Shown piece by piece: positions 29,001 through 48,322 of a stretch of DNA of 59,236 nt. The stretch is from a virus (taxonomy: Duplodnaviria > Caudoviricetes). How positions within the stretch are numbered: position 1 is the first letter of the stretch; each line of letters begins with the position of its first letter. The notes under the pieces are model-generated. The model saw nothing but the letters and a program-made list of their open reading frames with translations, was not told the DNA's origin and made no database searches. A program made the position numbers and the translations under genes. Where the stretch lies: IMG/VR virus record IMGVR_UViG_3300025102_006169, positions 1 through 59,236 of that record; one strand, given 5' to 3'.

Positions 29001-32000
29001 TTCTACAAAGGTTTCACCACTCGTTCCAGCGGCTCTTTTATTCTTACTACTCCATTTCTTAGGCTTTTTACCAATTGATTGGCCTGCGATAGAAATGTCT
29101 TTACCTTGTAAAACTCTTAGGGCTCTATCTTCCGGGGTGTAGTTTTTGAACTTTAGATCATTTTTATCAAGATCATCACCAAATAATTTAAAGTCAACAC
29201 CTCTTCGGAGATCACTAGCAGCCTGTGCAAACTTAGCAGCCCATGTTGTTTTGTTCTCTAAATCAAACTCATCAATAAACGCCTCAACATATTTTTTTCG
29301 TCTTCTAATCCTTCTGTTGTTGGTATTAAATGTTTGTTCAAAATCATCGATTGCGTCGGAAACATTTGCATAACCTTCTGGGGTTATCTTTGTTTTAAAT
29401 TCTGGCTCTAGCTTTAGTAGTTCATGTGCCATGTGGGCTCCGACAGTTGGCGGGAAGCCACCGGTCGATCGACCAAAGAAAGAATTACCCTTACCTTCTC
29501 TGCCACTTAACTTAGTTCCATAAATATCCATTGGGGCTGGTTCAAAAAACCCTCCGTCTGGATCTTTGATTGCATTATCAGACGCAAATTCAAAAAATCC
29601 TAAGTCAGCAGAGTTTGGCGACCCAAAATGTCTAACCATCCAGTTATGTTTTTTCCATGGCCGGCCTTTTGTGTCTGCCAAGATAGCGTTTAATACGCCG
29701 CCATGGCCAGTGAAGAAGTTGATTGGACTCATCAAATCTCTGATGTGCCCTTCTTCAATCGGAATAAACAATAGTGATGCAACCTGTCCAGCAACGTCAG
29801 AAAGCACAGGATCGTTTGTATTATAAATACCATCAGCCGGGCATGTCTGGTCACCAATAATAGGTGGTACATCAGCAAGAGGCCCATTGTTAATAATATT
29901 TGCGATGTCAGCTAGGTCTTGAACAGCTTTATCTTTAATGTCATCCAACTGTTCCCTGCACTCTTCGGGAGTTAAGCCCTTAAAACCAAGAAGATCGCAT
30001 CTTATGTCATTAATCTGATTTGCAGTTTCATCAGAACATGGGAAGACTGGGCGGTCGAGGTCTCCATTTAACACATCATCATAATCATCTGGTAAGAAGA
30101 TTTCGAGACCGGGGAAGAAAGTCGTGAAAGCGTCTGGGTCAGAGAAAATGTCTTTAATACACTCTGAGCCAGAAACTTTGGCCACTTCCACAGCTAAAGT
30201 TAATGTTTCTGCTGTAGCTGTTCCGCTGATTAACTGAACAATCTGCGCTTGGGTCAACATCACAGACAGGTCATCAATAAAATCTCCCATCTCAGAGTTT
30301 GTTAAAGTTTCCAAACAGGATCTTTCATCATCTGCAAATACAGAAAAAATGTCCTTAAGGGCGGAATGCAGTGCATCATCCGATGCATCAGGGCACATGT
30401 TTTGTTTTAGCAGATCTCTAAAGTGATCATTTCCATCGTATAAATCTAATAAACTTGCACCTAATGTTGCAATTGCATCGCATGCTATTTGACCTATTTT
30501 TGATAGTATCAATTTAGCAGCCGCCATCATTGCTGCGATAATCGCCTCTTTAAGAGCTTCTTTAGCTGCTTCATAAATCATAGTGAAGATGTTAAATTCT
30601 GCCTCATTTGGCAGAACGCCTTGAGGTGTCGTTAAATCAAAATCCCACTTACAAGTTTCAGTTTCAAAGCCCACTACTAGTGTGCTCATAAAGTTGTCAA
30701 TTCTTGGATTCATAGCCCATGGGGGATTTGGTTTACAAGGTATGTTCTTAATAAATGATGCAATAATAGGGGCGCCCGGTAATTTATTAAGCTCATTTAA
30801 TAAAACATCAGCACCAACAGATTTAAGTATAGCATTCCTATAAGCGTCAACGAGTACCTTGTTAAAACCAGCAAGTGCTTGACCATAAGTGCCACCTGAA
30901 CCGGGGTTATCACTACCAACACCACCAAAAGAGAAATTGCCCTCTGAATATCCAATTCCAAAAATACCGGGATCGTTCGCCGTTCTAGAACGCACGGGTG
31001 GGTCGTCAGCAGTTGGTTGGGCGTCTCTTATGTCTTGTACTCTCCTATCAACAGCAAGCCTAATACGTTGTAAAGTGTTAGTATCGATACTATCAGTCTC
31101 GGGTAAATCATTGTCTCTCTGGAATTGATTTAACACCTCAACTGATGCGGGGGTAAATTCTCGATCAACATTAATGTCATAACCAAGAAATAAAAGTGAC
31201 TCCTCAACTACCTGAACGTCATCCCCAGTGGTTCCCAACTCTACATTAAATACGTCATCAGTATTAACCCATGGTTCATAGTCGGCCGCTGGGTTCTCCG
31301 TGTCGTCGGTTGGTAGCTGTGTTTCGAAGCGACCCAGCACCTCATCAAGCGCCTCAGTAGACTCTTTGCCGATCTCTTCATAAATTTCATCTAAGCTAGC
31401 ATCCGGGTTTGGTTCGACCCCGAGACTTTCTAAAATCTCGTTGGCTTCTCTCTTTTTTAGTTCTTCCTCTCTATTTTTTAGAGATGTAGGATTTGTGGCA
31501 GGTGGCCCACCTGCTAAGGAAAATCCGGGTCCTGAATAACTCCCTCCAATGTAGTTTGTGTCCCATGGTGCAGGCAGTCCTTTAACGTCCTCTTCCAAAG
31601 TATCAAAAACTTTTTGTTGCTCCTCTGGGGGTAGGCCAGCGAAGACGCGCTCTAAGTGAGCATCGCTCATTGATTTAAAAGCTGCCTCTGTTAGTAGACC
31701 AATAGCAGTTTGTTCACCAATTCCTTGAGCAACACAATCTGCCGCTCTCAGAGATAAGGCTAGCCATCCACACCACTTTAATCGATCGTTGAGTCGTTGG
31801 AAAAATAATTCTTTTAAATCACGGTCTGCTTTTCTTAGGTTTCTTTTATATTGTCTTCGTTTAAGATTTTTGTTGTCCTTTTTATTTTGTAAAAAGTTTG
31901 AGTTTGTAAGCTTTCGTTTTGCAATTTCAGCTTCTATTTCCTCAATCACTATAAACAAATATGGATCTTCTTTTTCTAAGCGTAATCGACGTTCGGCTTT

Positions 32001-33884
32001 TTCTCTCTCTCTTTCTTTCTTACGCTTTGCTTTGCGAGCTTCTTTTGCATCGCTTCTTATCTCTTTTCTTTTTTCTCGGGCTTCAGGGGTTCTTCTTTCT
32101 GCTCGGGCTTCTTTGCGAGCGGTGCGAGCGTCGATGCGGGCTTGGCGCTTCTGTTCTTTAGAAAGTCCGTTAGATTCATCATCTTCTTCTTGGACTTCTT
32201 CACGAGTCTTACATGTACCTTCTTTTATTTTGGCTAAGACTGCATCAGGAAAAGATAGACCTATACCTTCTAACTGGTCTAGAAGTTGACCTACATTGTC
32301 TTCTCCTAATTTATCGCCGAGACACTCTAAAGAAGACGGATCATTTAAAACATTATTACTATTTGCGCCCAGCAAGACTTCAACGCTAGGAAAAGTAAAC
32401 GTTGTTACAAATTCAAGCCAAGGCGTTGGGGACCGAGCCTGCAAAACAAGATCCATCTCTGGCAGAGCGCCGACATAATACAGAGTTGTTGATCTCTGCA
32501 TTGGAGAATACGCTGTTAAGTCTTGGAATAACTTGCTGTATTTACCGCCCTTGCCAACTCTAATGTTTTCACAACCGGGTTTATTAAATTCTATCTGTCG
32601 CAAAGCTATTGAATCAGTTCCAGTTTCTTCAAATTTAAATGTTATTTTTTCTATCTGGTTGAAGCCTTTAAATGATAACCCTTGATCTTTTATAAATGCA
32701 TTTATCTGATCTCTAAAATCTTCAAGATAATCTGCCTCATCTCTTAAATTTAAGCGAGATGAAGTGCGTTCTCTTACCTTAACCAGCTGGCCACCTTCAT
32801 TAGTATACCAATTGTCAAGTTGATTTTGGTAGACCCTCATTGCTCTAACACTTCTGCGGAACATAGGGAAAAAATCTTTGCCAAGTATAGTTGCCTCTAA
32901 ATCAGATTCAAATTTGGTATCTGGTTCGGCGATGGCCCTTGTGGGAACTCTTTCTAGATATTCTACTGGGACCGAGACTAGAATTCTCGTTCTGGCTGTT
33001 TTCTGGATAGGTATTGAGTACTCGAATTTAGCATAGGGAAGAAGTTCGCTTACAACGTCTCGCTCTTCTGTAACAAGATCATAACCACGAATCGGATCAG
33101 GGATAACAACACCACCAAGCACCCCAACACCAGTCGCAGCCAATGTACCTATTCCTGCGCCGAGAGTAGCAGCTAAAATCGTGCCTGCTGGGGTCTTGCC
33201 TAGTAGCGCGGCTGTTGATGCACCAATTGCTCCCCCGGCCGCTGCGGCGCCGAGGGTCAAGGTAGCTGATAGTCCTGTTTTTAAATCATCTTTACTCGGG
33301 GGTTGTTTAACATAATAATAAACGGTTGCCACTTCAGATTTGTTAAAGTATTGAAGCATTAATTTTATAGCTTCTTGTTTTTTTGTCTTCCGATAATTCT
33401 CATTTTTCAAATCTGTTACTGTTGGTCCGTCAAACACTGGAGATTTTTCGGTCAGAACAAGACTTTGATAACACCTTTTGCCGTCAAAGAAAATGTCTCC
33501 ATCTTCCATTAGCCTATAATCAGGAACATAAGCGTACTCGTTTTCTCTACAAAGCGGACATTCTACTACACCACTAAAATCTATAGGATCACATTCCAAG
33601 AATTTGAAATCTGGGATTGAAGTTTTTTCTCGAAGAGCATTTTCCGGAATGCCTGACGTGGGGGGTAGATTATAATCACCGGGGGTAGCTGCTCTATCGG
33701 ATAGACCAACGTCTTGTTTCTCATCGTCCGTAGGATAGTTGTTAGACGCGGCTGTAAGCGCAGCCTCATCACTGCCGGGGGCAGGGGTGCCGGTGGCGGC
33801 GCCAGTGCCGGAGCGCGTGAAATAGGTATCGTCTGCGAACTCTTCTAAAGACTCTCTGCCTTTTCCGTCCTTAATTTTTCCCAT
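26043..33884 (-). CDS. very large virion-associated protein (2613 aa) with Gly/Ala hydrophobic segment, charged coil, degenerate peptidoglycan-binding domain and His-rich motif
   Basis: GLSATLTLGAAAAGGAIG...GVGVLGGVV (~33095-33276); R/K/E-rich coil (~31810-32190); LGTTGDDVQVVEESLLFLGY..FQRDNDL (~31060-31240); HTHEY..HVHYHEI..HRHNI (~26740-26890). Confidence 0.55.
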   Translation of the reverse strand: MGKIKDGKGRESLEEFADDTYFTRSGTGAATGTPAPGSDEAALTAASNNYPTDDEKQDVGLSDRAATPGDYNLPPTSGIPENALREKTSIPDFKFLECDPIDFSGVVECPLCRENEYAYVPDYRLMEDGDIFFDGKRCYQSLVLTEKSPVFDGPTVTDLKNENYRKTKKQEAIKLMLQYFNKSEVATVYYYVKQPPSKDDLKTGLSATLTLGAAAAGGAIGASTAALLGKTPAGTILAATLGAGIGTLAATGVGVLGGVVIPDPIRGYDLVTEERDVVSELLPYAKFEYSIPIQKTARTRILVSVPVEYLERVPTRAIAEPDTKFESDLEATILGKDFFPMFRRSVRAMRVYQNQLDNWYTNEGGQLVKVRERTSSRLNLRDEADYLEDFRDQINAFIKDQGLSFKGFNQIEKITFKFEETGTDSIALRQIEFNKPGCENIRVGKGGKYSKLFQDLTAYSPMQRSTTLYYVGALPEMDLVLQARSPTPWLEFVTTFTFPSVEVLLGANSNNVLNDPSSLECLGDKLGEDNVGQLLDQLEGIGLSFPDAVLAKIKEGTCKTREEVQEEDDESNGLSKEQKRQARIDARTARKEARAERRTPEAREKRKEIRSDAKEARKAKRKKEREREKAERRLRLEKEDPYLFIVIEEIEAEIAKRKLTNSNFLQNKKDNKNLKRRQYKRNLRKADRDLKELFFQRLNDRLKWCGWLALSLRAADCVAQGIGEQTAIGLLTEAAFKSMSDAHLERVFAGLPPEEQQKVFDTLEEDVKGLPAPWDTNYIGGSYSGPGFSLAGGPPATNPTSLKNREEELKKREANEILESLGVEPNPDASLDEIYEEIGKESTEALDEVLGRFETQLPTDDTENPAADYEPWVNTDDVFNVELGTTGDDVQVVEESLLFLGYDINVDREFTPASVEVLNQFQRDNDLPETDSIDTNTLQRIRLAVDRRVQDIRDAQPTADDPPVRSRTANDPGIFGIGYSEGNFSFGGVGSDNPGSGGTYGQALAGFNKVLVDAYRNAILKSVGADVLLNELNKLPGAPIIASFIKNIPCKPNPPWAMNPRIDNFMSTLVVGFETETCKWDFDLTTPQGVLPNEAEFNIFTMIYEAAKEALKEAIIAAMMAAAKLILSKIGQIACDAIATLGASLLDLYDGNDHFRDLLKQNMCPDASDDALHSALKDIFSVFADDERSCLETLTNSEMGDFIDDLSVMLTQAQIVQLISGTATAETLTLAVEVAKVSGSECIKDIFSDPDAFTTFFPGLEIFLPDDYDDVLNGDLDRPVFPCSDETANQINDIRCDLLGFKGLTPEECREQLDDIKDKAVQDLADIANIINNGPLADVPPIIGDQTCPADGIYNTNDPVLSDVAGQVASLLFIPIEEGHIRDLMSPINFFTGHGGVLNAILADTKGRPWKKHNWMVRHFGSPNSADLGFFEFASDNAIKDPDGGFFEPAPMDIYGTKLSGREGKGNSFFGRSTGGFPPTVGAHMAHELLKLEPEFKTKITPEGYANVSDAIDDFEQTFNTNNRRIRRRKKYVEAFIDEFDLENKTTWAAKFAQAASDLRRGVDFKLFGDDLDKNDLKFKNYTPEDRALRVLQGKDISIAGQSIGKKPKKWSSKNKRAAGTSGETFVEFYGEKARLLDLPDTSSADIQLDFKTYKDEAEDATPNFEFSLQYDYNLFDDDGNLLPDNNYRVKVVETHRSPSGGGAQLRRQLKKQGSDVPPKSLLDEGDYSFTSYDLELPSSRTIELQQFIDTLEVSDEIKDSYQIEHIFRYFERIITDATDKNLTEGDKNRLRRYFSDSNFDVISGSFLKRIANIISTGRVDLSPETDSEDEPSDSFLQPDVLEGQNKREQKNHEQIGLEYIAPGFLFGYDPFKEPDIIYLDNETYGGVLGKLFPDKVPPPFYVQEQRYAGWMDIAQALVPEVDGCEPARRHLLDLKPLAQQSAQLGTELLEDYRLEFDPLCAQESPFDRIMSASDAGKIDGAIRAIIRIYVLDVFLRAVPVFTQFGLSDANYDGLLQTFVAERMRQGLLTDGTPATGTQDEEFYHRFLEQCVNTIVRKADAGLIKVDEVSDDWSQEEFVALNNIIQSVDRFYTRNDGKLAALSNAAISGQSIIQRAISPKASSRTVNIGSGSAKFSKTAAKIAKKAAFEKMIRQNEEDALIILKRFIREEFEVIKNDFNQRIPPSIDNINHLFLLNENWIRGGVFGEGPLDVMSDPTDPDTFVSENIVTTPAINKMKEVFKKAGSQFGDVLSNAFEDRLQAWPFVLEKYIKIIEKDSPPTEVRDRPENLYNVVNISDWDSYVKQKKSEGLKGMISDLWGNPALSGETEKIEDHTHEYEIDENGNGRTSEHVSANGHVHYHEIIDGVLQKESLLGDEETHRHNIPIIGWKFGLRINYIPHPDDPNIDAFVGSLAEVSKESVMNEKAFKVKSPNGDRFVIPIASAELDIPDQEYDLFDPDSYDVYCLIEELIEKQEYKFFFEYLFPLSTFNSLMAIYSTMGFFASIGNSGFPSKGGDLWEMPGGNHGKKFRKWVRGPNAFKKSKQAARDVFTVIYEASQAIDFTHENKYGYPDRPTSIRDAIRPRVNFEDGLRWWQRGRRIFNRPFDSLGDECDD

Positions 33885-37775: not shown

Positions 37776-37976
37776 TCAATCCTCCTCAGAATCCTCAAAA
37801 TCTTCTTCTAATTTAACCAACGGAGGATTAATAACCACCAATCCAGTTTCAGAAAGACGAAATTTAAAACCTTTTAAAACTGGAACAATGTCGGATTGCT
37901 CTAGTAAAGATTTTTGTAGGGCCATCATTAAGGCTCCCATTGCTTGATCCGATAAAAGCATTTCTTGATTACTCAT
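37776..37976 (-). CDS. hypothetical protein (66 aa)
   Basis: ATG at 37976 preceded by AAGGAG; fills the gap between ugd and the FmdB gene. Confidence 0.6.
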   Translation of the reverse strand: MSNQEMLLSDQAMGALMMALQKSLLEQSDIVPVLKGFKFRLSETGLVVINPPLVKLEEDFEDSEED

Positions 37977-38811
37977 TTTTTTCTCCTTTTGTAACAGCTC
38001 CATCAATGTTGAGCCAATCATGTTCTTTACGAACTTCCATGTTTTTTTTCCATGATGCTTTTAACATAACAGGTTCTACGCCGTTTGTCAATGAATAAAA
38101 TGTTAAAGCATTCAAATCTTTTGGAAAACATTTTCCTCCAAAACCATTATGACCATCTGGGCCGGGAACTTGAAGGTGGCTTTTACCTATTCTTTCATCA
38201 TAGAGCGCCAACTTAACTACGTCGTTATAATCGGCTCCAGAAACATCACAAATTTGTCTCATCTCATTTGCAAAAGATACTTTTGTAGCCAAGAAAGTAT
38301 TGATAAAGTATTTTACGGTTTCAGCAGTTTTCCAATCAGTCGTAAAATAGTATTTATCTTCAAATACCGATTGAAGTAACCTAACACATTCCGCTGTGTC
38401 TTCTTTGTGGCCACCAAAAATCATACGATTACAGTTTCGAAAATCTTCAATGTGATTTGCTTCTGTAAGAAACTCCGGGCTAAAAACAATTCTTATGTTG
38501 GGGAACCTGTCTTTTATTTCTTCGCATGTGCCCGGAACCACTGTGGATTTTAAAATAATAATGTTGTCTTGATAGTTTTGATAAATTTGCCCCATTGCGT
38601 CAAAAATTATAGACAGATCACACTCACCATTATCATACATTGGGGTTGGCAACGCTACAAAAATTATCTCTGCCTCACCAACAACTTCTTTAATGCTATC
38701 CCTGTTTGAAAGGGCAGGTTTTCTGTCATAGATGACAAACTCATAATCATTTTTTAAATTTTCATAAATTGCGGAGCCTACAAAACCATTTCCAATAAGA
38801 CCTATCTTCAT
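37969..38811 (-). CDS. ugd: UDP-glucose/GDP-mannose dehydrogenase family protein (short form)
   Basis: GNGFVG Rossmann motif, LPTP, KSTVVPGT, PEFL, KYFINTFLATKVSFANE, catalytic GFGGKCFPKD. Confidence 0.88.
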   Translation of the reverse strand: MKIGLIGNGFVGSAIYENLKNDYEFVIYDRKPALSNRDSIKEVVGEAEIIFVALPTPMYDNGECDLSIIFDAMGQIYQNYQDNIIILKSTVVPGTCEEIKDRFPNIRIVFSPEFLTEANHIEDFRNCNRMIFGGHKEDTAECVRLLQSVFEDKYYFTTDWKTAETVKYFINTFLATKVSFANEMRQICDVSGADYNDVVKLALYDERIGKSHLQVPGPDGHNGFGGKCFPKDLNALTFYSLTNGVEPVMLKASWKKNMEVRKEHDWLNIDGAVTKGEKNE

Positions 38812-39686
38812 GATAACTCCTCCTTAAGAAGCTTAAAGCAATCTCTAATACCTTGTTCAGCTTCGTGTTTTGGATTCCAGCCTAATAACTTGAGCGGTTC
38901 TATAAATGCCTTTGTTTCAAAAACATCGTTTTGTCGTGGGTCAACATAATCAAACACAACCTCTGGAAAGAACTCAAGTGCAATATCTTTAATTGCGTTC
39001 AAGGAAATGTTATCGCCAGTCCCAATGTCAAACCACTCTCCATTAAATTTACCTTCATAATTCATGCAAAAAATGTTAGCCGACACAACGTCTAGTTTAT
39101 GCGCCATGTCTCTTAGTTGTCCTCCGTCGCCCGTAATAAAAGGGTTCTTGTTGTCACGGATGTATTGCATCCAATTAGCCACTGCTGTGGCGTATGGGCC
39201 ATCTGCCTTTTGGTCCGGGGAGTACACATTAAAATAACGCAGACACACAGTGTCCAGCCCATAGAGCCTTGACCAGACTCCACACATGCTTTCAGGCATC
39301 AATTTAGATGCCCCATAGGGATTCTCTGGTCCTTCTCCGTTTCCTGTAACCGAAGAAGAGCTTGAATAAATAACTCGTTTAGCACCGACTGCTCTTGCAA
39401 ATTCCAACACATATAGCGAACTTAATACATTGTTCTCCAAAACATGAACTGGTTGTTCTATGCTATACACAACCCTTGGTATGGCCGCTAAATGAAAAAT
39501 GTATTCGGGCTTAAAATTAAACCAATGTGGGTGAAATTTTCCGTCACTATCTGGCTTTAAACACTCTAAGATGTCATGTCCGTCAACTAAATCAATGCCC
39601 AGAACATCATGACCAGCCTGCTTTAATTGCTTATAAACTTCAGACCCTATGTACCCCTTGTGGCCCGTGACTAAACATCTAGACAT
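38808..39686 (-). CDS. NAD-dependent epimerase/dehydratase (extended SDR)
   Basis: VTGHKGYIG, HLAA, YSSSSSV, YGASK, LRYFNVY. Confidence 0.9.
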   Translation of the reverse strand: MSRCLVTGHKGYIGSEVYKQLKQAGHDVLGIDLVDGHDILECLKPDSDGKFHPHWFNFKPEYIFHLAAIPRVVYSIEQPVHVLENNVLSSLYVLEFARAVGAKRVIYSSSSSVTGNGEGPENPYGASKLMPESMCGVWSRLYGLDTVCLRYFNVYSPDQKADGPYATAVANWMQYIRDNKNPFITGDGGQLRDMAHKLDVVSANIFCMNYEGKFNGEWFDIGTGDNISLNAIKDIALEFFPEVVFDYVDPRQNDVFETKAFIEPLKLLGWNPKHEAEQGIRDCFKLLKEELS

Positions 39687-40509
39687 CTACTCCTCCAAAT
39701 TGTGGTGGCTTGTCCCAAAAAAGCTTTGCTTTTTCGTAATCATCATCCCTAAGTGTAATCTTGTCATTCAAAACATAATCTTCAAAATCTATGATTGGAT
39801 ACACATCAAGAACAGTTTTTTTACTAGCATTCCAAAACTTAACTGTGTCATCTTTTGCGAAAAAGTTTTTATGTGCTAAAGAATGTACGTTACGCATTTG
39901 GTTGTTGATTTTATACACCTTTTCGGGTGGGATGTCTGCTTGGTAAGAACTGTCAAAGTGGTTTGGATCATTCTTGGTGCCGCGATCACCAGTCCAGCCA
40001 AGGTCCGCGCCAACAATTATAATCTCGCTAAAACCCATGTAGTAAGCTAACTGAAGTGCTAAATTCATAGTGGTGCCTGACTTGTCAATCCTTTCAGATA
40101 CATCAGTAGAAAATGAATATTCTAAAATGTCACCGTTGGTGGCAGGTTTATTCTCAGACATTGAATTAAACCACTTAATTCTGGGGAAACCGAAACTAGG
40201 ATCTATCTGTGGTCGGAACATTTCGGCTATAAAAGATGTCGTTTCACGATGAGATACGGCCTCTCTTACAGATCTAGTCCAATCGGCACCCCATACAGGA
40301 TGTCGAACATTAGTAGAGGAAAACAAATAGTAAGTTGGCTTCCAATCCGGGTTCTCTGGGTAGATGAGCGAAATACGATTCATAGCGATAGTATATTCAT
40401 CTGCCAGTAAATCTAAATTTGTCTCTTTCAAGCTGGGGCCATTAGCCACCAAGAATACTCTTTCGCCTTTGTGTAAGTTTTTAAACTCTTTAAACACTTG
40501 GTTCATCAT
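39679..40509 (-). CDS. DUF115 / Maf-like (MptE-like) putative glycosyltransferase
   Basis: KNLHKGERVFLVANGPSL, IAMNR, ALQLAYYMGFSEIIIVGADL, DPNHF, WNAS follow the DUF115/Maf pattern. Confidence 0.7.
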   Translation of the reverse strand: MMNQVFKEFKNLHKGERVFLVANGPSLKETNLDLLADEYTIAMNRISLIYPENPDWKPTYYLFSSTNVRHPVWGADWTRSVREAVSHRETTSFIAEMFRPQIDPSFGFPRIKWFNSMSENKPATNGDILEYSFSTDVSERIDKSGTTMNLALQLAYYMGFSEIIIVGADLGWTGDRGTKNDPNHFDSSYQADIPPEKVYKINNQMRNVHSLAHKNFFAKDDTVKFWNASKKTVLDVYPIIDFEDYVLNDKITLRDDDYEKAKLFWDKPPQFGGVDV

Positions 40510-41894: not shown

Positions 41895-42971
41895 TTAAGT
41901 AAATAAGTTTTTTAAATTACCATTTCTTTCTATTGAGATGCTGGAGCAGGATGGGTATGGGTTTGTGCTGGCAAAATCATTAACAATTATTCTTTTTCCA
42001 TGATTGCAGCCAGATATTATGGTTTTGTATCGTATCTCATTCTCTTTCAGAAATGTCTTAAAGAATTCTAGATACTCATCTGTTCTACTTGTCATAAAAA
42101 TTATTTCGCTACCTTGGTCCGATAATTTTTTTACCAAATCAAAGTTTTCCTTGATCGGCTCAAATGTATTTGACCAATTTTTAGATCCATATTTACCATA
42201 ATTGATAAGCATAACCCCATCGATGTCAAAAATGTAAGTATTAAACCTGTCTCTTTCCTCTTGCCACTCTTTCAAGGTTCCCCAATCAACATAGTTTTTT
42301 GCATCCACAAATTGAAATGCTACTTTCCTGTTTATAAGCAAGTGTGAAATGATGTGACTAACATACAATTCTTTGTTATCAAGCAACACACCAGAATCCA
42401 CAATCTCGTTATAGGATTCAATAAACTGTTCAACCGTGAGGCAGTATACACCCAAACAGATGTTATCGGAAACAATGCTCTTTTCAACAATGTCTTGAAT
42501 TAGGTTATCATCATTTTTTACAATAAAGCTTTTATTCTGTATCTTTTTAACTGTTGATCGTTCGTCAATCCTCATTCCAACAACAAAGTTCTTATCAATG
42601 ATCGATTCTGTGGCCACTAAGCAATCAGTGTCTTTGATTATTATCCGACCTTTAAGGTTTGCAGCTTCTATTGCTCTTAGCACAGTCTCTGGACAAGAAC
42701 TAGTTTCCTGCTCCAAAATGATTACACTCACACTATTTCCAAACGCTTGCTCCAAAACCAAATCAGCTTCAAATTTGTCACAATGCTCTCTAAGAGTCAC
42801 AACATAAGTGTTTTTGTATTTATCATACTCAAATTCTTTCAGCACCTTTTCAATCATCATGTTGCCATCTGGATGTGTGAGCATCCATTTTGGTCGCATA
42901 CCGGGGAACCTAGAAGACTTACCAGCAGCGGGGACGATCAGTGTTATGTCTTTCCTGTTATCGAATGGCAT
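41895..42971 (-). CDS. sugar nucleotidyltransferase-like domain fused to HAD phosphatase
   Basis: N-terminal IVPAAGKSSRF..PKW and DWGT; C-terminal YIFDIDGV, FMTSR, IIVND. Confidence 0.75.
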   Translation of the reverse strand: MPFDNRKDITLIVPAAGKSSRFPGMRPKWMLTHPDGNMMIEKVLKEFEYDKYKNTYVVTLREHCDKFEADLVLEQAFGNSVSVIILEQETSSCPETVLRAIEAANLKGRIIIKDTDCLVATESIIDKNFVVGMRIDERSTVKKIQNKSFIVKNDDNLIQDIVEKSIVSDNICLGVYCLTVEQFIESYNEIVDSGVLLDNKELYVSHIISHLLINRKVAFQFVDAKNYVDWGTLKEWQEERDRFNTYIFDIDGVMLINYGKYGSKNWSNTFEPIKENFDLVKKLSDQGSEIIFMTSRTDEYLEFFKTFLKENEIRYKTIISGCNHGKRIIVNDFASTNPYPSCSSISIERNGNLKNLFT

Positions 42972-43761
42972 GTTCTAGACTCCCTTCTAGGTGTGCTAAG
43001 GTGCGTTTATCTTTACAGTATGGGATTACTCTAAGGATGTTTAAAACAATTAAGCAGTCAATTGATTTTTTGTTGTCTTTATAGATTTGTGTATTTTTAA
43101 GGATTTCATCAACATAAATGCTTTTAACAATTGGTTTTTGTTTTATAAACCTGCTTGACCAAAAGTATCTTACGTCAAACAGCAGTTTTGCTACGTCAAT
43201 CAATTTTGTATCAATAAAAGAATCTAAAAAATCTATAAAATGCAGCTTTCCATTTGAAACAATTAAATTCTCAAATGTTAAATCACCGTGACACTCGCTT
43301 GTTGGTATGTGCTGCCAGTTATTTTGCAACACATGTTCATAAAACTTTTCATATCCAGTTGTCTTTGTTCTAATGTTTTTAATTTTTTCCTGTATAAATT
43401 TCGATAAATCCTGTGTTTGTTGTATTTTATCACAGGACAAGTAGTCTTGCAGAGCTTTAATAAATGGTGCCACTGTGCTAATGTCGGAGCTTCTGATGTG
43501 GTCACTTAGTGATTTACCATTGATGTAGTTCATGTCAAAATAAAATAAATCGTTAACATGACCTCTTCTTAGAATTTTTGGACTTTCTATAATTGATAAT
43601 TTGCTGGTAAATTTTTCTTGTTTTTGTGATTGGTTTAACAATCTTTCATTATAAGAAACATCTGGAGAAATCTTCCTGACGTATTTTTCTTGTGAGTTAC
43701 TGTCGTTCGCACACAGCAGAATTTTGCACCCAGAATGACCAGACAGTTTTTTAATTATCAT
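42958..43761 (-). CDS. aminoglycoside/choline-kinase-like phosphotransferase
   Basis: LSGHSG, VRK, CHGDLTFEN (Brenner motif), FIDF, DVAKL. Confidence 0.75.
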   Translation of the reverse strand: MIIKKLSGHSGCKILLCANDSNSQEKYVRKISPDVSYNERLLNQSQKQEKFTSKLSIIESPKILRRGHVNDLFYFDMNYINGKSLSDHIRSSDISTVAPFIKALQDYLSCDKIQQTQDLSKFIQEKIKNIRTKTTGYEKFYEHVLQNNWQHIPTSECHGDLTFENLIVSNGKLHFIDFLDSFIDTKLIDVAKLLFDVRYFWSSRFIKQKPIVKSIYVDEILKNTQIYKDNKKSIDCLIVLNILRVIPYCKDKRTLAHLEGSLEHAIR

Positions 43762-44687
43762 TTCCCGACTGGTCGATTGTATGACATATAGTTTAAAGCG
43801 TTCAGGTCTAAATCCTTTTCAAAATAAATGTATTTTATAGCATTTTTAATTTTTGATTTTTTCAAGTCAGGTGGATTATCAACAATTTCTTTTGTCCAAT
43901 TTTTGATCCAACCCATTTTTTCTCTGGTGTGTGTCGGATTTGAATGTGGCCAAGTTCCTTCCCACTTGTTATAAAAATAATTCCAAGCTGAGAGTTTGTA
44001 AATACCCCCTCTGCTATTATTCCAGATTTGTTGCTGCTCAGAATCGTCTGGCTTTCTTTTTATAATTTCTTTACCTGCATCATTAACCGTAACAAAGTTT
44101 CTATCATCGAATGATTCTATAGGGTAATCAGGCTCGTGATTCAAAAGTATTCCATGAACAATGTCATTAATTGATGTCTTGTCTTTGTTGTAGATTAGTG
44201 CTCTTAAAAAATAATCTGTCTCTTTGTATTGAGCAGGCAAGTTTTCGTCCCACATTCCAATTTTTCTAATTGATTCGGGTTTATAGGCTGTTATTGTATC
44301 TCCGCAGAGGCCTGTCACAAAGGTATAGCCCTTTTGATTGAACAATACATCCAAATGTTCACACCACTTCGGATGAACAACGGCGTCGTTCTGTAGTGTA
44401 ACAAGTATCTCAGTATCTGGTTTTTGTAGATTTACTACGCCATTAATGAATGCTTGATTATAATTTTCTGATACATTTCCATTTGACCAATCGGGTCTTA
44501 GTACATTATGTAACACATTCACTTTATTTTTAAATTCGTCTCGCAGATAAAATTCGGAGTGATTGTTAATTACGTTAACCTCTGTATTTTTCAACTCTGA
44601 GAAGTCTGATTTAAACAGTTTATCAAGCGTATCATTGAGCACATCACATCTTTTATATGTAACAATGTAAACCTTCATTTTTTTCAT
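43758..44687 (-). CDS. GT-A fold (GT2-like) glycosyltransferase
   Basis: ATGA-coupled start at 44687; VYIVTYKR, VINN, LQNDAV, IGMWDE, ETDY. Confidence 0.7.
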   Translation of the reverse strand: MKKMKVYIVTYKRCDVLNDTLDKLFKSDFSELKNTEVNVINNHSEFYLRDEFKNKVNVLHNVLRPDWSNGNVSENYNQAFINGVVNLQKPDTEILVTLQNDAVVHPKWCEHLDVLFNQKGYTFVTGLCGDTITAYKPESIRKIGMWDENLPAQYKETDYFLRALIYNKDKTSINDIVHGILLNHEPDYPIESFDDRNFVTVNDAGKEIIKRKPDDSEQQQIWNNSRGGIYKLSAWNYFYNKWEGTWPHSNPTHTREKMGWIKNWTKEIVDNPPDLKKSKIKNAIKYIYFEKDLDLNALNYMSYNRPVGK

Positions 44688-45652
44688 AACAGATCTACCC
44701 GTTCTAGACAGTCTGTCCAACTGTTAAACTTGATAGATTTATCATCAATGTAAGCAACTGCGCGTGGTTTTTCAGCCGTTACTTTACTAATAAACTGAGA
44801 TAAGTTGTTACTCTCAAGCCATTCCCAAACAAGTTGAGTACCAGTCTTTCCGTTAACTAGCCCTCTATCTGCTCTAGCCTTGCATGTGTAAACTATAACT
44901 GTATACTTCTCTGACAGAGATTGTAAAGCTTCGTATGAACCTTCAACTGGCTCGTCGTAGATCGTGCCATCGTAATATCCCTTGGAACACCTGTGTATTA
45001 CTCCATCAAAATCAACTCCAATGTTAATTTGCTCATCTGGGTAGCTATGTTTTCTTACCTTGCCACCTTTCCAGTTTAGTTTTTCGAGTTCCTCTGGCGA
45101 GTTTTTCCCGATAGGAGGGCACACGTTCCCAGATGCATGAGTCAGTTGATACGTTAATAAAAGAGTGAGTACTTCAGACGTATGATAATAATCTGCCCCT
45201 AAGACAACTTGAGTAAGATTGTTAACACTTTCTGTGATGGGCACTGAGGTTATCATAGCCACCTCCATGCCATGATCAGTGCCCCATTGTAAGGCCTTAA
45301 TTATGTCGCGCGACTTACCAGAAGAGGAGATGCCAAGCACGAGTGACTTCTTCATTTGTGTTTTGGTTCTAGCAGATGTACGGCTAGAGAGCCAGCTAAC
45401 CATCCATTGATCGAAGCCGACATCATTAATCAGAGAAGTTGCTACAACGCCGCTACCGGGACACATTGCGTTCTTATTACCATTTGATAACCTAGTGATG
45501 TCTACTGCTGCATGGTCTGCAACCGCAAGGTTACCACCGTGTCCAAGCACATAAATTTCATTACATCGGTTAAATTTCTCTTGAAGTTCTTTCCAAGAAC
45601 TTGAATTTACTGTCTTTACAAACTTTTCGTCTAAATTTTCAAAATTAAGCAT
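44684..45652 (-). CDS. SIS-domain sugar-phosphate isomerase (GmhA-like) fused to HAD phosphatase
   Basis: GHGGN..ADH, INDVGF, ISSSGKS (SIS); C-terminal IGVDFDGVI, YTCK, YIDD (HAD). Confidence 0.75.
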   Translation of the reverse strand: MLNFENLDEKFVKTVNSSSWKELQEKFNRCNEIYVLGHGGNLAVADHAAVDITRLSNGNKNAMCPGSGVVATSLINDVGFDQWMVSWLSSRTSARTKTQMKKSLVLGISSSGKSRDIIKALQWGTDHGMEVAMITSVPITESVNNLTQVVLGADYYHTSEVLTLLLTYQLTHASGNVCPPIGKNSPEELEKLNWKGGKVRKHSYPDEQINIGVDFDGVIHRCSKGYYDGTIYDEPVEGSYEALQSLSEKYTVIVYTCKARADRGLVNGKTGTQLVWEWLESNNLSQFISKVTAEKPRAVAYIDDKSIKFNSWTDCLERVDLL

Positions 45653-46325
45653 TTTTCATTACCCCCTCATAATATTCTAATAAAGCTATCGTATCCATAC
45701 CTAAACATTTTAGTCCATAGTCCTGATAATTAGCAATTTGTTGATCTACATTGTTTGGAATGTGTACGGCCAATTTATTAGTCGGTATTTTATCTTTTAC
45801 TTTATTAATGTAACCCATAAACACAGGGTTGTCAAATTTTCCGGGCAAATTTAAACTTAAAGATAAGTCATAAGGTCCTATTAAATAATAATCAAAATTA
45901 TAACCAACTATCTTGTCGAGGTTGTCAACTCCGGTCTTCGTTTCAATTTGTGGTATTAAAATTGGATCCTCTGTCAGTAGGCCGTCTCGGCCCCAAGAAT
46001 TACCCCTGACAAGACCAAGGCCCCTGTTACCCCTTGGTGTGTAACAGGAATACTCAATAATTTTCTCGGCCTGCGAAGCACTCTCTATGGTGGAAAAAAT
46101 AAGACCAGTGGCGCCAGAATCTAAACAATGCCGTATCAAAGTGTTTGAAATTTCTGTCAGTCTAACAAAGCACTGCTTTCCGCACAGTCTTGCCACTTGA
46201 ATACATGAAGATAATGTCTCGCGACTATAACACCCATGTTCTGTATCTAATACAACACCATTACCATTTTTACAAAGTATCTCAGTGATTACAGGGGATG
46301 CAATTTGTTGCCATGATAAAATCAT
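45645..46325 (-). CDS. HpcH/HpaI-family pyruvate aldolase
   Basis: LDTEHG, FVR, LDSGATG, PRGNRGLG, QIET, IGPYDLSLSL. Confidence 0.9.
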   Translation of the reverse strand: MILSWQQIASPVITEILCKNGNGVVLDTEHGCYSRETLSSCIQVARLCGKQCFVRLTEISNTLIRHCLDSGATGLIFSTIESASQAEKIIEYSCYTPRGNRGLGLVRGNSWGRDGLLTEDPILIPQIETKTGVDNLDKIVGYNFDYYLIGPYDLSLSLNLPGKFDNPVFMGYINKVKDKIPTNKLAVHIPNNVDQQIANYQDYGLKCLGMDTIALLEYYEGVMKNA

Positions 46326-46978
46326 TTATAATATACCTCCTCCAAAGCTTTAACTAATTCCCAATCAGATTCCGTGTCAATGTCAAGATTTTCTGGGTGT
46401 TTAACCGCATAAAAGAATGGTTTAACTCCTATTCTGTTGTGAGATTTTATGAAATCTATGGATTTAAAAATGTAAAACGCCGAATTTTCCTCGTATAGAG
46501 TTGGCAAATCTTGTGTTTGTTCCAGCTTCATTGGATTGTGATTAACGGGACAAGACCCATACGATTCATTCCTCCAGAACCTAGAATTGTGTTTCGTGCA
46601 AGAAACAACCGAATCATATTTAGGGCCGATTTGTGATGCGGCCATAAAAACAGTCGAGTGATTCAGAAAAGGACTGGTGACATGTATTTGTGCTACAACA
46701 TCACCAATGTCATGTCTCACAATAAAATCTTTGATTAAGTTACAAACTGAAACTTTGTCGCCTCGCAAATCTGGGTGTCTCATGTACGGCACCACATTTT
46801 TTAGACGGTTATCTTTGCTAATCTCTTTGATTATTTCTTCGCTATCAGTGTCAACAAAAACATCACAATTGGTATATTTAAGCAAAGTATGCTTATACAA
46901 AGGCTCGCCATTGAAGATTCTATAATTTTTCTTTGGAACTCTTTGGGAATTGTGTTTAATCGGTATGAAAATTTTCAT
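46322..46978 (-). CDS. acylneuraminate/ulosonate cytidylyltransferase (NeuA/KdsB family)
   Basis: Start at 46978; IPIK.NSQRVPKKN, VDTDS, HVTSPF, TQDL..YEENSAFY, DIDTESDW. Confidence 0.88.
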   Translation of the reverse strand: MKIFIPIKHNSQRVPKKNYRIFNGEPLYKHTLLKYTNCDVFVDTDSEEIIKEISKDNRLKNVVPYMRHPDLRGDKVSVCNLIKDFIVRHDIGDVVAQIHVTSPFLNHSTVFMAASQIGPKYDSVVSCTKHNSRFWRNESYGSCPVNHNPMKLEQTQDLPTLYEENSAFYIFKSIDFIKSHNRIGVKPFFYAVKHPENLDIDTESDWELVKALEEVYYK

Positions 46979-47738
46979 TACTAACTCTTTTAAAGTCCTC
47001 TTTACTGAACTTTTGCATTTCAAGTATCATTTTTAAAGTCTTGTCTAAATTAACTGCCTCGTTATCCAGCAAGGTTTCCTTAGCATATTCCCACATGTTC
47101 TTTTGTATGTGTCTTTTTGAGGCAAATGCCATGTCTGCAAACTCTTGTTCGGAACAGTTCTTTTCGTTCTCTACCCCTGACTTTTGTCCCGGTATAAACC
47201 CATCCAAGTAAAAACTGAACCCATAAATTGATAACTTACTTGGATTCATTTCTAGTAAATCATAGATAGATAAAAACCCTGTATTAGGTTTACATTTGAC
47301 TGCATCTGAAATTTTGTTATTAAAATTGTGATCTATAATTCGTATTGGTATTAGCTCAGAAATAAATTCTGCTTTTTTTACATCTATCAAACCGTGAAAA
47401 TGAGTTCCCTTAGAGTGCCCTGCATAGTCTGAAACAGGAGGGGCTACAATGATTTGGATTTTATGTTTTTCTTTTAGTTCTGTTCGGTCTAATTTGCCAG
47501 CTTGTTGTGCCCTTTCTATTAGACATGAGTAGAGAACATCTGTCCTACTACCAACATCATTCTTATAAACCAAAGCGGTCTCGATTCCCCTATTAATCCT
47601 GACAACTATGTCATGTGATTCTATCTCAGGACCGTAACCCGAGCCGTGCATGTATTTTGCTGGTCCTACAAGGGCTACAGATGATCCGCTAATGAAGTCT
47701 TTAAAACCTGTCTCATGTGTGTTTGTAATTTGTATCAT
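46956..47738 (-). CDS. GT29 sialyltransferase-like glycosyltransferase
   Basis: VALVGPA...GPEIESHDIVVRIN..DVGSRT resembles sialylmotif L; PNTGF...IYGF resembles sialylmotif S; late His in KRHIQ. Confidence 0.7.
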   Translation of the reverse strand: MIQITNTHETGFKDFISGSSVALVGPAKYMHGSGYGPEIESHDIVVRINRGIETALVYKNDVGSRTDVLYSCLIERAQQAGKLDRTELKEKHKIQIIVAPPVSDYAGHSKGTHFHGLIDVKKAEFISELIPIRIIDHNFNNKISDAVKCKPNTGFLSIYDLLEMNPSKLSIYGFSFYLDGFIPGQKSGVENEKNCSEQEFADMAFASKRHIQKNMWEYAKETLLDNEAVNLDKTLKMILEMQKFSKEDFKRVSNENFHTD

Positions 47739-48322
47739 TTAGTTTCAGCTTTTTTGACAATTGCAATTTTGTTTTCTACAACTTTAATCAATCCTTCTTC
47801 ACCAAAGAAATGTTTGGTATAAGTATTTTCCACAAATCTGCCCATGTCATCCACAATACAAATACCATTGTCCTTTAGCAGCCTGTGGGCGTTATAAATG
47901 CTTTGCATTCTGCCCGGACCCTTGTACGGACGCGGAGGTTGGTGTCCAAGTGGAGCATCCACTAGAATTAAATCCCAATTTTCCCCTTCGATGTTGTTGG
48001 GCATTTCTAAAAACAGTTTATCAGTATCGGAAAAATTAATCTTTTCATGATCTTCAACTTTTGTGGTATATTTAATCGGATAAATCTCAAGCTCTGTTTC
48101 ACTAAATTTATCAATCCACTCAATGTCATCCTCCAAGAAAACAGTTCTCCCACCCTTATTAAGTTCAGCCCATGCATGGGCATCCTGACCTAAACCAAAA
48201 ACTAAAAAATTGCACGGAGCTAATAGTTCCAGAGCGTAACCTATTTCATAATATTGCGGGCTTGACATCAGACCTTTTGAAAAATTGTGTGCATTTTTCT
48301 GCATGATTTTTCGAAAATTCAT
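47735..48322 (-). CDS. DUF579 (IRX15/GXM-like) polysaccharide O-methyltransferase
   Basis: PCNFLVFGLGQD..W..LNKGGRTVFLEDD and WDLILVDAP.G....GPGRMQSIY closely follow plant glucuronoxylan methyltransferase motifs as recalled. Confidence 0.75.
   Translation of the reverse strand: MNFRKIMQKNAHNFSKGLMSSPQYYEIGYALELLAPCNFLVFGLGQDAHAWAELNKGGRTVFLEDDIEWIDKFSETELEIYPIKYTTKVEDHEKINFSDTDKLFLEMPNNIEGENWDLILVDAPLGHQPPRPYKGPGRMQSIYNAHRLLKDNGICIVDDMGRFVENTYTKHFFGEEGLIKVVENKIAIVKKAETK

Follow-up and report, generated by a model that had tools for sequence, protein, structure and literature searches.

Four overlapping genes are tightly packed on the minus strand between positions 44684 and 47738 of the 59-kb window (the whole stretch of DNA analyzed, 59,236 nucleotides, about 21% of a genome) from an uncultured marine T4-like phage. 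Judging from their sequences, they may form the core of a module that builds a 3-deoxy-2-ulosonic acid of the Kdo or Kdn type without a PEP-dependent synthase, activates it, and transfers it to an acceptor, a reading that we consider narrowly probable. The cassette encodes a GT29-like (sialyltransferase-fold) glycosyltransferase, a NeuA/PseF-like CMP-ulosonate synthetase (CTP_transf_3), a class II (metal-dependent) HpcH/HpaI-family pyruvate aldolase, and a fusion of a GmhA-like SIS isomerase with a capless HAD phosphatase (SIS-HAD). It lies within an 18-kb island of glycosyltransferase and methyltransferase genes. We found no published description of such an aldolase-based CMP-sugar-acid cassette.

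In the proposed pathway, the SIS domain would convert a host ketose phosphate to an aldose phosphate, to which the aldolase would join pyruvate to give a 3-deoxy-2-ulosonate phosphate. The HAD domain would then strip the phosphate, pulling the reversible aldol reaction forward, before the NeuA-like cytidylyltransferase makes the CMP-sugar and the GT29-like enzyme passes the sugar to a glycan built by the surrounding island. The size of the sugar would be set by the SIS substrate, with ribulose-5-P leading to a C8, fructose-6-P to a C9, and sedoheptulose-7-P to a C10 product, which a neighboring DUF579 methyltransferase probably modifies. The substrates, the acceptor, and the order of condensation and dephosphorylation are those that we infer.

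Results

The earlier note had described four consecutive overlapping genes for these enzymes; the open reading frames lie exactly where it placed them, neighboring frames share overlaps of 4 to 68 nt, and all four family assignments hold. Directly upstream, overlapping the GT29-like gene by 4 nt, is a gene for an IRX15/GXM (DUF579)-type O-methyltransferase (47735–48322, minus strand; PF21729, E = 5.8e-31). Directly downstream of SIS-HAD in the window is a GT2-like glycosyltransferase gene (43758–44720, minus strand; PF00535, E = 0.0024, below the cut-off), which in most relatives instead directly follows the cytidylyltransferase gene.

The GT29-like gene (46956–47738, minus strand) encodes a soluble protein of 260 residues. 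Its match to PF00777 (Glyco_transf_29; E = 7.9e-10; 39 bits, cut-off 23) is limited to residues 22 to 71, which correspond to sialyl motif L, and its PDB sequence matches are all animal GT29 enzymes and cover motif L only. The AF2 model (pLDDT 93.7, pTM 0.91) reveals the GT29 fold on which the earlier note had made its reading depend. The top 30 Foldseek hits are GT29 proteins, and the 14 best entries in the VIA comparison all belong to GT29 (Z = 13.6–15.2, the best being ST3Gal-I at 15.2), with the GT42 enzymes Cst-I/II scoring lower (Z = 10.5–11.9). Invariant positions are G25, P26, A27, D43, R47, N49, P151, N152, G154, G173, F176, H210, and Q212. GT29, GT42, and DUF115 enzymes use CMP-ulosonates as donors, and the modeled fold suggests that the phage protein is a CMP-ulosonate transferase. 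The DUF579 methyltransferase is its probable partner, as PF21729 and PF00777 occur together in single proteins of about 440 residues in 23 of the 120 listed homologs. A candidate for an alternative acceptor-side enzyme acting on a CMP-ulosonate is a second sialyltransferase-like protein encoded in the same island, of the MptE-like/DUF115, WaaZ-like type (39679–40509, minus strand; PF01973, E = 8.5e-12; NCBIfam WaaZ Kdo III transferase, 6.6e-5, below the cut-off). MptE-like genes adjoin SIS-HAD or CTP_transf_3 in loci L059, L071, L077, L090, L110, and L114.

Compared with animal GT29 enzymes, the phage protein is short and soluble, and only motif L is common to them at the sequence level. The earlier note's view of GT29 as mainly eukaryotic should be qualified, since Petit et al. 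(2018) described 23 GT29 sequences from bacteria, most of them marine and Gram-negative (PMC5811610). As in these marine bacterial GT29-like sialyltransferases, the phage protein has neither a transmembrane stem nor the animal disulfide cysteines, and its source is likewise marine. However, it is phage-encoded, its homologs are often fused to a DUF579 methyltransferase, and its gene lies directly behind those for a CMP-synthetase and an aldolase. The main text of that article mentions neither "virus" nor "phage".

The cytidylyltransferase gene (46322–47023, minus strand) encodes 233 residues as listed and matches PF02348 (CTP_transf_3) with E = 5.2e-18. Translation probably does not begin at the listed TTG but at an ATG 15 codons inward, at 46978, which agrees with the homologs. 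NCBIfam models for PseF (1e-17) and the KdsB subfamily (0.002) are both matched far below their cut-offs. The best PDB matches are CMP-Neu5Ac synthetases (1qwj, 8.7e-13; 9t4z; 1eyr), the mouse enzyme being the top one, and the alignment with this group includes the motifs S-x-x-x-P-x-K-N, TSP, QDLP, and DIDTESDW. To our knowledge, every characterized CTP_transf_3 enzyme activates 2-ulosonic acids.

The aldolase gene (45645–46325, minus strand) encodes 226 residues that match PF03328 (HpcH_HpaI; E = 2.2e-13) and PDB YfaU (2vws; 1.4e-18). NCBIfam models for HpaI (1.6e-21; 76.9 bits against a cut-off of 368.8), RhmA, and GarL are also matched, all far below their equivalog cut-offs. His30, Arg55, Glu128, and Asp153 are invariant in 13 viral homologs, and each aligns with a residue of the same type in YfaU; we take these four to be the catalytic residues. 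HpcH-family aldolases join pyruvate to aldehydes to give 4-hydroxy-2-oxo acids, that is, the ulosonate skeleton, and we propose from this shared family and fold class that the phage protein may carry out the condensation that builds the 3-deoxy-2-ulosonate skeleton. Known members are catabolic and act mostly on nonphosphorylated aldehydes, which weighs against this proposal.

The aldolase could instead be read as a catabolic auxiliary metabolic gene that, during infection, provides energy or carbon by splitting pyruvate from a 2-keto-3-deoxy sugar acid and sits in the island by chance. The nearest characterized relatives (YfaU/RhmA, HpaI, and GarL) are indeed catabolic. A pattern-limited scan returned no bacterial relative of the viral clade above about 30% identity, and at the eight bacterial loci that were fetched (27–30% identity) neither glycan genes nor a cytidylyltransferase gene was detected near the aldolase. 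However, the phage gene overlaps glycan-synthesis genes and keeps this place across 32 deduplicated viral loci, no dehydratase or transporter that a catabolic route would pair with it was seen, and a second HpcH subfamily is likewise linked to CTP_transf_3. We regard a catabolic role as very improbable and the context as biosynthetic.

The SIS-HAD gene (44684–45652, minus strand) encodes 322 residues, with the SIS domain at residues 1 to 185 and the HAD domain at 198 to 322 (AF2 model, pLDDT 92.6). The database holds 1211 homologs, of which the best 120 are at least 73% identical. The SIS half matches Pfam SIS weakly (E = 0.0067, below the cut-off). By both sequence (NCBIfam gmhA, 1.4e-7; PDB GmhA 1tk9, 1.5e-4) and structure it is nearest to the heptose isomerase GmhA (1x92; VIA Z = 21.4, RMSD 2.6 over 173 residues) and not to the Kdo-pathway isomerase KdsD (SIS domain of 2xhz; Z = 16.8). 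The HAD half has no Pfam match; its motifs DFDGVIH, TCKA, EKPRA, and YIDDK are intact in the alignment. Its fold matches those of the capless HADs 3bwv (Z = 10.3), 2obb (10.1), and MDP-1 (9.4), and the structure comparison gave no specific resemblance to KdsC or GmhB. We propose that the protein may supply an aldose phosphate, dephosphorylate an ulosonate phosphate, or both, although the likeness of its SIS half to GmhA and the lack of a specific resemblance of its HAD half to KdsC count against this.

In the window, SIS-HAD is followed by the GT2-like gene and then by genes for an APH-type kinase (42958–43761) and an NTP-transferase-HAD protein (41895–42971), and it could instead belong with this kinase and nucleotidyltransferase in a different pathway. 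Specifically, SIS-HAD could be a GmhA/GmhB-like pair that, with these two proteins and an SDR epimerase (38808–39686), yields a nucleotide-activated heptose, leaving the aldolase, cytidylyltransferase, and GT29-like enzyme as the acid-sugar set. The likeness of the SIS domain to GmhA agrees with this, as do the epimerase of the window, which matches ADP-glyceromanno-heptose 6-epimerase at 6.3e-24 (GalE scores higher), an epimerase gene directly after SIS-HAD in L002, L004, L005, L008, and L012, the CTP_transf_like (HldE domain II type) gene after SIS-HAD in L003, and a beta-phosphoglucomutase-like HAD fused to NTP_transferase in the same island of most relatives. However, canonical heptose routes need a PfkB or GHMP kinase, and none was found in five records, three of them complete; related loci contain no counterpart of the APH-type kinase. 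Moreover, both domains are found fused to CTP_transf_3 elsewhere (SIS in P0415; HAD in P0372, P0391, and P0427), and CTP_transf_3 lies within 10 kb of SIS-HAD, often adjacent, in 44 of 47 deduplicated groups. We thus consider the heptose explanation unlikely.

The order of these four genes in relatives was compared using our own HMMs, built from Pfam-checked sequences. The contiguous order GT29–CTP_transf_3–HpcH–SIS-HAD recurs in five further viral contigs (L051, L053, L055, L065, and L078). CTP_transf_3 is present within 10 kb of the aldolase in 28 of 32 deduplicated groups, and in two of the other four (L014 and L020) the upstream flank runs to the end of the contig; a GT29- or DUF115-like gene occurs in 25 of the 32. 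As related phages share synteny by descent, these counts do not represent independent events. A distant HpcH subfamily, identified with Pfam, forms an independent second lineage of the aldolase/CTP_transf_3/HAD set, in the orders GT2–HpcH–CTP_transf_3–HAD–MptE-like (L110), MptE-like–HpcH–CTP_transf_3–HAD (L114), and CTP_transf_3–HpcH–HAD (L129). In L037, genes for a 2-hydroxyacid dehydrogenase and CTP_transf_3 come after that for an aldolase of 43% identity.

The earlier note had remarked that no NeuB or KdsA is encoded in the cluster, and this extends to the whole window and three related records. Neither NeuB (PF03102) nor a KdsA-type synthase (PF00793) was found in these 59 kb, about 21% of the phage genome, in three aldolase-bearing relatives (two judged 100% complete), or in G007. 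NeuB is present in 0 of the 32 deduplicated aldolase groups, and no DHDPS gene was found in G001 or G007.

Separability of the parts in relatives leads to another explanation, in which two modules feed a common activation step. SIS-HAD and the cytidylyltransferase would boost a host pathway by contributing the isomerase, phosphatase, and CMP-activation steps, with condensation left to a KdsA- or NeuB-type synthase of the host, and the aldolase, not fed by SIS-HAD, would make a different acid or reshape one, for example, by C4 epimerization through cleavage and resynthesis. Escherichia coli capsule loci supply KpsF and KpsU as such boosters. In keeping with this, SIS-HAD adjoins CTP_transf_3 with neither the aldolase nor NeuB within 10 kb in 23 of the 47 deduplicated SIS-HAD groups. 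G005 (191 kb, judged 100% complete) has GT29, SIS-HAD, and CTP_transf_3, and HpcH, NeuB, KdsA-type, and DHDPS genes were not found in it. Conversely, in G002 (157 kb, judged 100% complete) the aldolase and CTP_transf_3 are both present, and a search with four positive controls found no SIS-HAD. In G004 and G006, NeuB lies beside a separate second CTP_transf_3, away from SIS-HAD. Against this explanation, 17 of the 28 loci fetched by the aldolase have its gene immediately followed by, and overlapping with, SIS-HAD. In addition, P0387 joins the HAD domain to an HpcH_HpaI domain and P0388 joins it to a class I pyruvate aldolase of the DHDPS/NAL family, and the domain adjoins the distant HpcH subfamily in loci without SIS, which points to a phosphatase acting on the aldolase product. 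Two separate feeder modules seem to us a less likely arrangement than a single ulosonate pathway, though a more credible one than a heptose route.

Discussion

The cassette is not obligate as a unit, and its parts are separable. Neither the fixed four-part unit nor the "complete route" of the earlier note is supported as written, since SIS-HAD with CTP_transf_3 occurs without the aldolase or a synthase in G005 and in nearly half of the SIS-HAD groups, and the aldolase with CTP_transf_3 occurs without SIS-HAD in G002. The underlying idea of a synthase-free ulosonate pathway agrees with the annotations, the GT29 fold, the lack of a PEP-dependent synthase gene in the window and the relatives searched, and the gene linkage.

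Besides a synthase, the canonical Kdo and Kdn routes employ an isomerase, a capless HAD phosphatase, and a cytidylyltransferase. The candidate pathway shares its logic and three of four enzyme classes with that of CMP-Kdo (KdsD, KdsA, KdsC, and KdsB; capsule paralogs KpsF/KpsU), namely, a SIS isomerase, a capless HAD phosphatase, and CTP_transf_3, followed by a dedicated transferase. However, a class II pyruvate aldolase takes the place of the DAHP_synth_1-type KdsA, and the isomerase and phosphatase are fused in one protein. The SIS domain, which lacks CBS domains, resembles GmhA more closely than KdsD, the cytidylyltransferase resembles NeuA/PseF more closely than KdsB, and the transferase is GT29-like rather than GT30, GT73, GT99, or GT107. 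KdsA and KdsB genes have been annotated in a published cyanomyovirus (PMC12801897). With the Kdn/sialic acid route, in which a NeuB-type synthase condenses Man-6-P or ManNAc-6-P with PEP, the cassette would share the condensation of a phosphorylated aldose with a C3 unit. A HAD phosphatase, a NeuA-like CMP-synthetase, and a GT29-fold transferase would then act in turn, as the Kdn-9-P/Neu5Ac-9-P HAD phosphatase, CMAS/NeuA, and the GT29 sialyltransferase do in that route, whereas NeuB was not found and the presumed C3 donor is pyruvate and not PEP. If our reading is correct, the phage cassette would represent a variation on the logic of the Kdo and sialic acid pathways, in which a pyruvate aldolase replaces the usual synthase.

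A T4-like phage carries the cassette within a glycan island

The window, 59 kb of an IMG/VR viral record, is judged to represent ∼21% of a phage genome, and all of its genes longer than 200 codons lie on the minus strand. Matches to PHROG profiles of a primase, a Holliday-junction resolvase, two baseplate wedge subunits, a gp55-like late sigma factor, an exonuclease, and PhoH identify it as part of a T4-like myovirus, and the closest cultured phages by the baseplate wedge protein are Microcystis phage Mel-JY01 (32%) and Flavobacterium phage immuto (30%). The baseplate wedge genes are flanked by two giant minus-strand ORFs of 3399 aa (12055–22254) and 2613 aa (26043–33884), which presumably encode tail or fibre proteins and are possible targets of the glycan island.

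This island for sugar metabolism spans ∼37.9 to 56.4 kb and comprises ∼22 genes, including a dehydrogenase, an epimerase, at least six glycosyltransferases, five methyltransferases, a kinase, and nucleotidyltransferases. Its middle is a four-gene cassette on the minus strand, which encodes a GT29-like transferase (46956–47738), a cytidylyltransferase of the CTP_transf_3 family (46322–47023), an HpcH aldolase (45645–46325), and an SIS-HAD fusion (44684–45652); the ORF listing of the window bore out the positions that the earlier note had assigned to all four. Elsewhere in the island, the NDP-sugar dehydrogenase ORF (280 aa; 37969–38811, minus strand) covers positions 64 to 297 of a 413-position profile and is either truncated or split. 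The minus-strand gene at 39679–40509 encodes a second sialyltransferase-like enzyme of the MptE-like (DUF115) family with a weak match to the Kdo transferase WaaZ; several relatives also have MptE-like genes beside SIS-HAD or CTP_transf_3. At 41895–43761 (minus strand), a gene for an APH-fold kinase precedes one for an NTP_transf_3-HAD fusion; together they look like a LicA/LicC-type pair for the activation of a phospho-alcohol or sugar-1-P, and no counterpart of this pair was found in related loci. The islands of related phages hold families typical of eukaryotes, including GT6, GT10, GT11, TOD1/MUCI70, and sulfotransferases (fetched loci L082, 7752–9253; L090, 8251–9102 and 12822–13610; L071, 12354–13538; and L037), and one island of this set encodes a RuBisCO-like protein.

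Features of the enzymes that would form and activate the sugar

The cytidylyltransferase matches PF02348 over the full length of the profile (E = 5.2e-18; residues 20–229 on positions 4–207 of 217), and its closest PDB matches are CMP-Neu5Ac synthetases. Its S-x-x-x-P-x-K-N, TSP, and DID stretches, which we take to be the CTP-binding and metal-binding motifs, align with 1qwj, 9t4z, and 1eyr. The protein falls outside the named NCBIfam equivalogs (64.5 bits versus a cut-off of 205.7 for PseF and 17.3 versus 193 for the KdsB subfamily), and its sequence appears to lean toward NeuA/PseF rather than KdsB. Translation probably begins at the ATG at position 46978.

The aldolase matches PF03328 (E = 2.2e-13), and its best PDB match is YfaU (1.4e-18), a class II HpcH/HpaI enzyme. 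His30, Arg55, Glu128, and Asp153 align with the corresponding residues of YfaU and are invariant across 13 viral homologues; we take the His and Arg to be the pyruvate positions and the Glu and Asp to be the metal positions. The scores lie below the cut-offs of the named equivalogs HpaI (76.9 versus 368.8 bits), RhmA (65.6 versus 441), and GarL (62.8 versus 406.75), and the rhamnonate, HpaI, and glucarate aldolases are equidistant from the window protein. In a tblastn search of cultured phages, the aldolase matched nothing beyond two Staphylococcus records (29% identity). When bacterial genomes were scanned with two short patterns from the aldolase alignment, eight generic HpcH genes were recovered, none of which (0/8) had a cytidylyltransferase nearby.

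The AF2 model shows the SIS-HAD protein as two domains with a low-confidence linker between them. Structural comparison by VIA gave the SIS domain a Z score of 21.4 to GmhA 1x92, versus 17.7 for the next non-GmhA entry, and, within the GGN...H-x-x-x-[DE] segment, its His47 and Asp51 fall at the His and Glu positions of GmhA 1tk9. The isomerase domain thus leans toward GmhA, with a score of 31.7 bits that is below the cut-off of the GmhA equivalog TIGR00441 (209.45). The other half is a capless HAD domain of ∼115 residues with all four motifs (DFDGV, T/S, K, and DD) present in alignment A4, and its fold (residues 208–322) gives Z scores of 9.4 to 10.3 to small HADs. KdsC and GmhB are not among the best 50 structure matches listed for the whole two-domain model, where SIS matches dominate. 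In cultured phages, tblastn with SIS-HAD matched the HAD half only, in actinophage genes annotated as polynucleotide kinase.

The modelled transferase has the GT29 fold

The GT29-like protein matches PF00777 above the gathering score (E = 7.9e-10), with residues 22–71 covering sialyl motif L only, and this motif aligns with residues 94–145 of ST3Gal-I. Sequence and profile searches of the PDB likewise matched animal GT29 enzymes only, and in motif L only. The earlier note had called the transferase GT29-like from its sequence; when the fold was checked, the AF2 model and VIA placed it with GT29 (GT-A variant 2) ahead of GT42. The model, built with 32 homologues, has a pLDDT of 93.7 and a pTM of 0.91, and the first 30 Foldseek matches are all animal GT29 structures (E ∼1e-7, TM 0.4–0.5). 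By VIA-align, it superposes on ST3Gal-I 2wml with a Z score of 15.2 and an rmsd of 2.8 over 187 residues, and 14 GT29 entries (Z = 13.6–15.2) rank above the GT42 enzymes Cst-I/II (10.5–11.9) and an MptE-like kinase (11.4). Given these rankings, the modelled transferase does have the GT29 fold. P151-N152-x-G154, G173-F, and H210 are also invariant among the GT29-like proteins; sequence profiles align motif L only, not motifs S, III, or VS, and these positions may correspond to motif S and the VS His. The enzyme is a putative CMP-ulosonate transferase.

The start of the GT29-like gene is overlapped by a minus-strand gene for a plant-type methyltransferase of the IRX15/GXM (DUF579) family (47735–48322; PF21729, E = 5.8e-31), and DUF579 and GT29 occur as a single fusion protein in 23 of the 120 GT29-like homologues among those listed. 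Because the two are linked by both overlap and fusion, O-methylation of either the transferred sugar or its acceptor is probable.

The aldolase is linked to the other cassette genes

Viral contigs were scanned with the aldolase, which yielded 12 and then 28 loci, and with SIS-HAD, for which the best 80 of 473 relatives were taken; the loci were annotated by Pfam and by local HMMs built from Pfam-checked sequences. The contiguous order GT29-CTP_transf_3-HpcH-SIS-HAD is repeated in L051, L053, L055, L065, and L078. In a second common layout, a GT2-like gene, a HAD-NTP-transferase fusion, and methyltransferases lie between the cytidylyltransferase and the aldolase. The aldolase is followed directly by SIS-HAD in 17 of the 28 loci fetched with it. 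Deduplication (≥97% identity over ≥3 kb) reduced 108 loci to 90 groups, 32 of which have the aldolase. Within 10 kb, these 32 groups contain CTP_transf_3 in 28 cases, a GT29- or DUF115-like gene in 25, SIS-HAD in 22, and NeuB in none, counts that are not independent events because the phages are related.

Domain fusions lean less on shared descent than locus counts do. Among 1970 relatives of SIS-HAD, with fusions checked by Pfam, the HAD domain occurs in fusions with CTP_transf_3 (three proteins), HpcH_HpaI, SDRs, and a DHDPS/NAL-type class I pyruvate aldolase, and the SIS domain in fusions with CTP_transf_3 and a cupin. BLAST gave no similarity between the window aldolase and the HpcH domain of the fusion protein P0387, so the HAD-HpcH fusion is evidence at the level of the family only. 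Neither P0387 nor a further fusion protein, P0388, was found among viral contigs; P0388 lies on one metagenome contig of 3.6 kb with an uninformative context. The same pattern, minus SIS, is seen with a distant HpcH subfamily, as GT2-HpcH-CTP_transf_3-HAD-MptE-like in L110, MptE-like-HpcH-CTP_transf_3-HAD in L114, and CTP_transf_3-HpcH-HAD in L129. Together, gene order, co-occurrence, fusions, and this second lineage tie the aldolase, the HAD phosphatase, the CMP-ulosonate synthetase, and the sialyltransferase-like enzyme to one process, and a phosphorylated aldolase product is suggested. The cassette was found in no cultured relative, and blastn of the region against cultured phages returned nothing.

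Several loci showed other arrangements. In L037 (9989–12383), the genes after a 43%-identical aldolase encode a D-2-hydroxyacid dehydrogenase and a strong CTP_transf_3 match (E = 2.8e-32), which hints at a variant with another C3 donor or with reduction of the product. In L013 (7659–8975), a fusion of phosphoribulokinase with a class II (fuculose-P type) aldolase comes directly after SIS-HAD and is followed by an NTP-transferase. In L093, L101, L103, L107, and L036, a GMD-like dehydratase and an acetolactate-synthase-like ThDP enzyme are encoded together with the small HAD and a distant member of the HpcH family, a set that may constitute a branched-chain sugar route.

The aldolase and SIS-HAD as separable, proposed feeders of the cytidylyltransferase

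The earlier note had reported that the cluster has no NeuB or KdsA synthase, and this holds for the whole window and for three aldolase-bearing relatives as well. NeuB (PF03102) had no match in the window or in these three relatives, two of which were judged 100% complete (184 and 157 kb), and the KdsA-type profile PF00793 (DAHP_synth_1) had none in the window or in six related records; as controls, the two profiles had matches in 9 and 11 of the 14 genomes used as references. NeuB is present in two related records that lack the aldolase (G004 and G006), where it adjoins a second cytidylyltransferase gene and not SIS-HAD. We considered NeuB as a one-for-one substitute for the aldolase and rejected it: the two never co-occur (0/32 groups), but only four NeuB loci were found, which, with the second cytidylyltransferase partner in G004 and G006, makes the displacement argument weak.

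In 23 of 47 deduplicated groups, SIS-HAD and CTP_transf_3 have no aldolase, NeuB, or DHDPS gene within 10 kb, and Pfam annotation of aldolase-less SIS-HAD loci shows cupin, SDR, and aminotransferase genes instead of a synthase. In L059, L061, L088, L090, and L017, CTP_transf_3 (often cupin-fused), an SDR, and a class III/DegT aminotransferase lie by SIS-HAD with no synthase, a set that points to the formation of a CMP-activated amino sugar acid from a precursor of the host. The complete record G005 (191 kb) has GT29-SIS-HAD-CTP_transf_3, and HpcH, NeuB, KdsA-type, and DHDPS genes were found nowhere in it. The complete record G002 (157 kb) has the aldolase and CTP_transf_3; SIS-HAD was not found there by a search that was positive in four control records. 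These two genomes, the 23 groups, and the placement of NeuB indicate that the cytidylyltransferase is the hub and that the aldolase and SIS-HAD are separable feeders. Of the four-gene unit put forward in the earlier note, the proteins and their linkage stand, whereas a fixed four-part pathway is countered by G005, G002, and the same 23 groups.

Loci with SIS-HAD and no synthase would also fit a host-synthase-dependent route of the KpsF/KpsU kind, in which SIS-HAD and the cytidylyltransferase boost a host KdsA- or NeuB-type pathway and the aldolase is not fed by SIS-HAD. Considering how often SIS-HAD directly follows the aldolase, we regard this reading as rather unlikely and see a slightly better than even chance for our preferred reading, in which the aldolase and SIS-HAD act in sequence where both are present. 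The GmhA likeness of the SIS domain raises another explanation, that SIS-HAD is a GmhA/GmhB pair for NDP-heptose acting with the APH-type kinase, NTP-transferase-HAD, and epimerase of the window. The canonical NDP-heptose route was ruled out, as no PfkB or GHMP kinase was found in five records; a mutase-based variant may be considered, but relatives without the APH kinase and the fusion of both the SIS and HAD domains to CTP_transf_3 make an NDP-heptose role improbable.

Predicted product and implications of the cassette

To our knowledge, a PEP-dependent synthase forms the skeleton in all textbook routes to Kdo and to sialic, legionaminic, and pseudaminic acids. The cassette follows the same logic as the Kdo and Kdn pathways, except that a pyruvate aldolase takes the place of the PEP-dependent synthase. 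Under a sequential action of SIS-HAD and the aldolase, a C8, C9, or C10 product is possible. A GmhA-like feeder isomerase could supply heptose 7-phosphate as the aldehyde for a ten-carbon product; the GarL-like chemistry of the aldolase family, together with the plant-wall-like enzymes of the island (DUF579, GT29-like, and PF03407), gives a Dha-type 3-deoxy-ulosaric acid as an alternative. The most far-reaching form of the proposal is that marine T4-like phages use a PEP-independent aldolase route to a new CMP-activated acidic sugar, either a C10 3-deoxy-dec-2-ulosonic acid or a Dha-type 3-deoxy-ulosaric acid, which would be methylated and placed by the GT29-like enzyme on the virion or host surface; taken as a whole, it is a long shot. 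As a gene association, the cassette is well supported, and as chemistry, it is unproven.

An annotated KdsA-KdsB pair in a cyanomyovirus has been published (PMC12801897). A full-text search of the literature gave no paper on a route combining an HpcH aldolase and a cytidylyltransferase; the single paper that mentions both is a Halomonas genome report (PMC12388113). GT29-like enzymes of bacteria have already been published, and a bacterial origin of eukaryotic sialyltransferases has been proposed (PMC5811610); the phage-borne GT29-like enzymes bear on this question.

If the proposed route is true, a reversible pyruvate aldolase drawn forward by a phosphatase and CTP would represent a new biosynthetic logic for a medically and ecologically important class of sugars, and the cassette would be a source of enzymes for preparing CMP-activated sugar acids. 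Each cassette gene has hundreds to over a thousand homologues in metagenomes, and abundant ocean phages would then produce their own acidic glycans.
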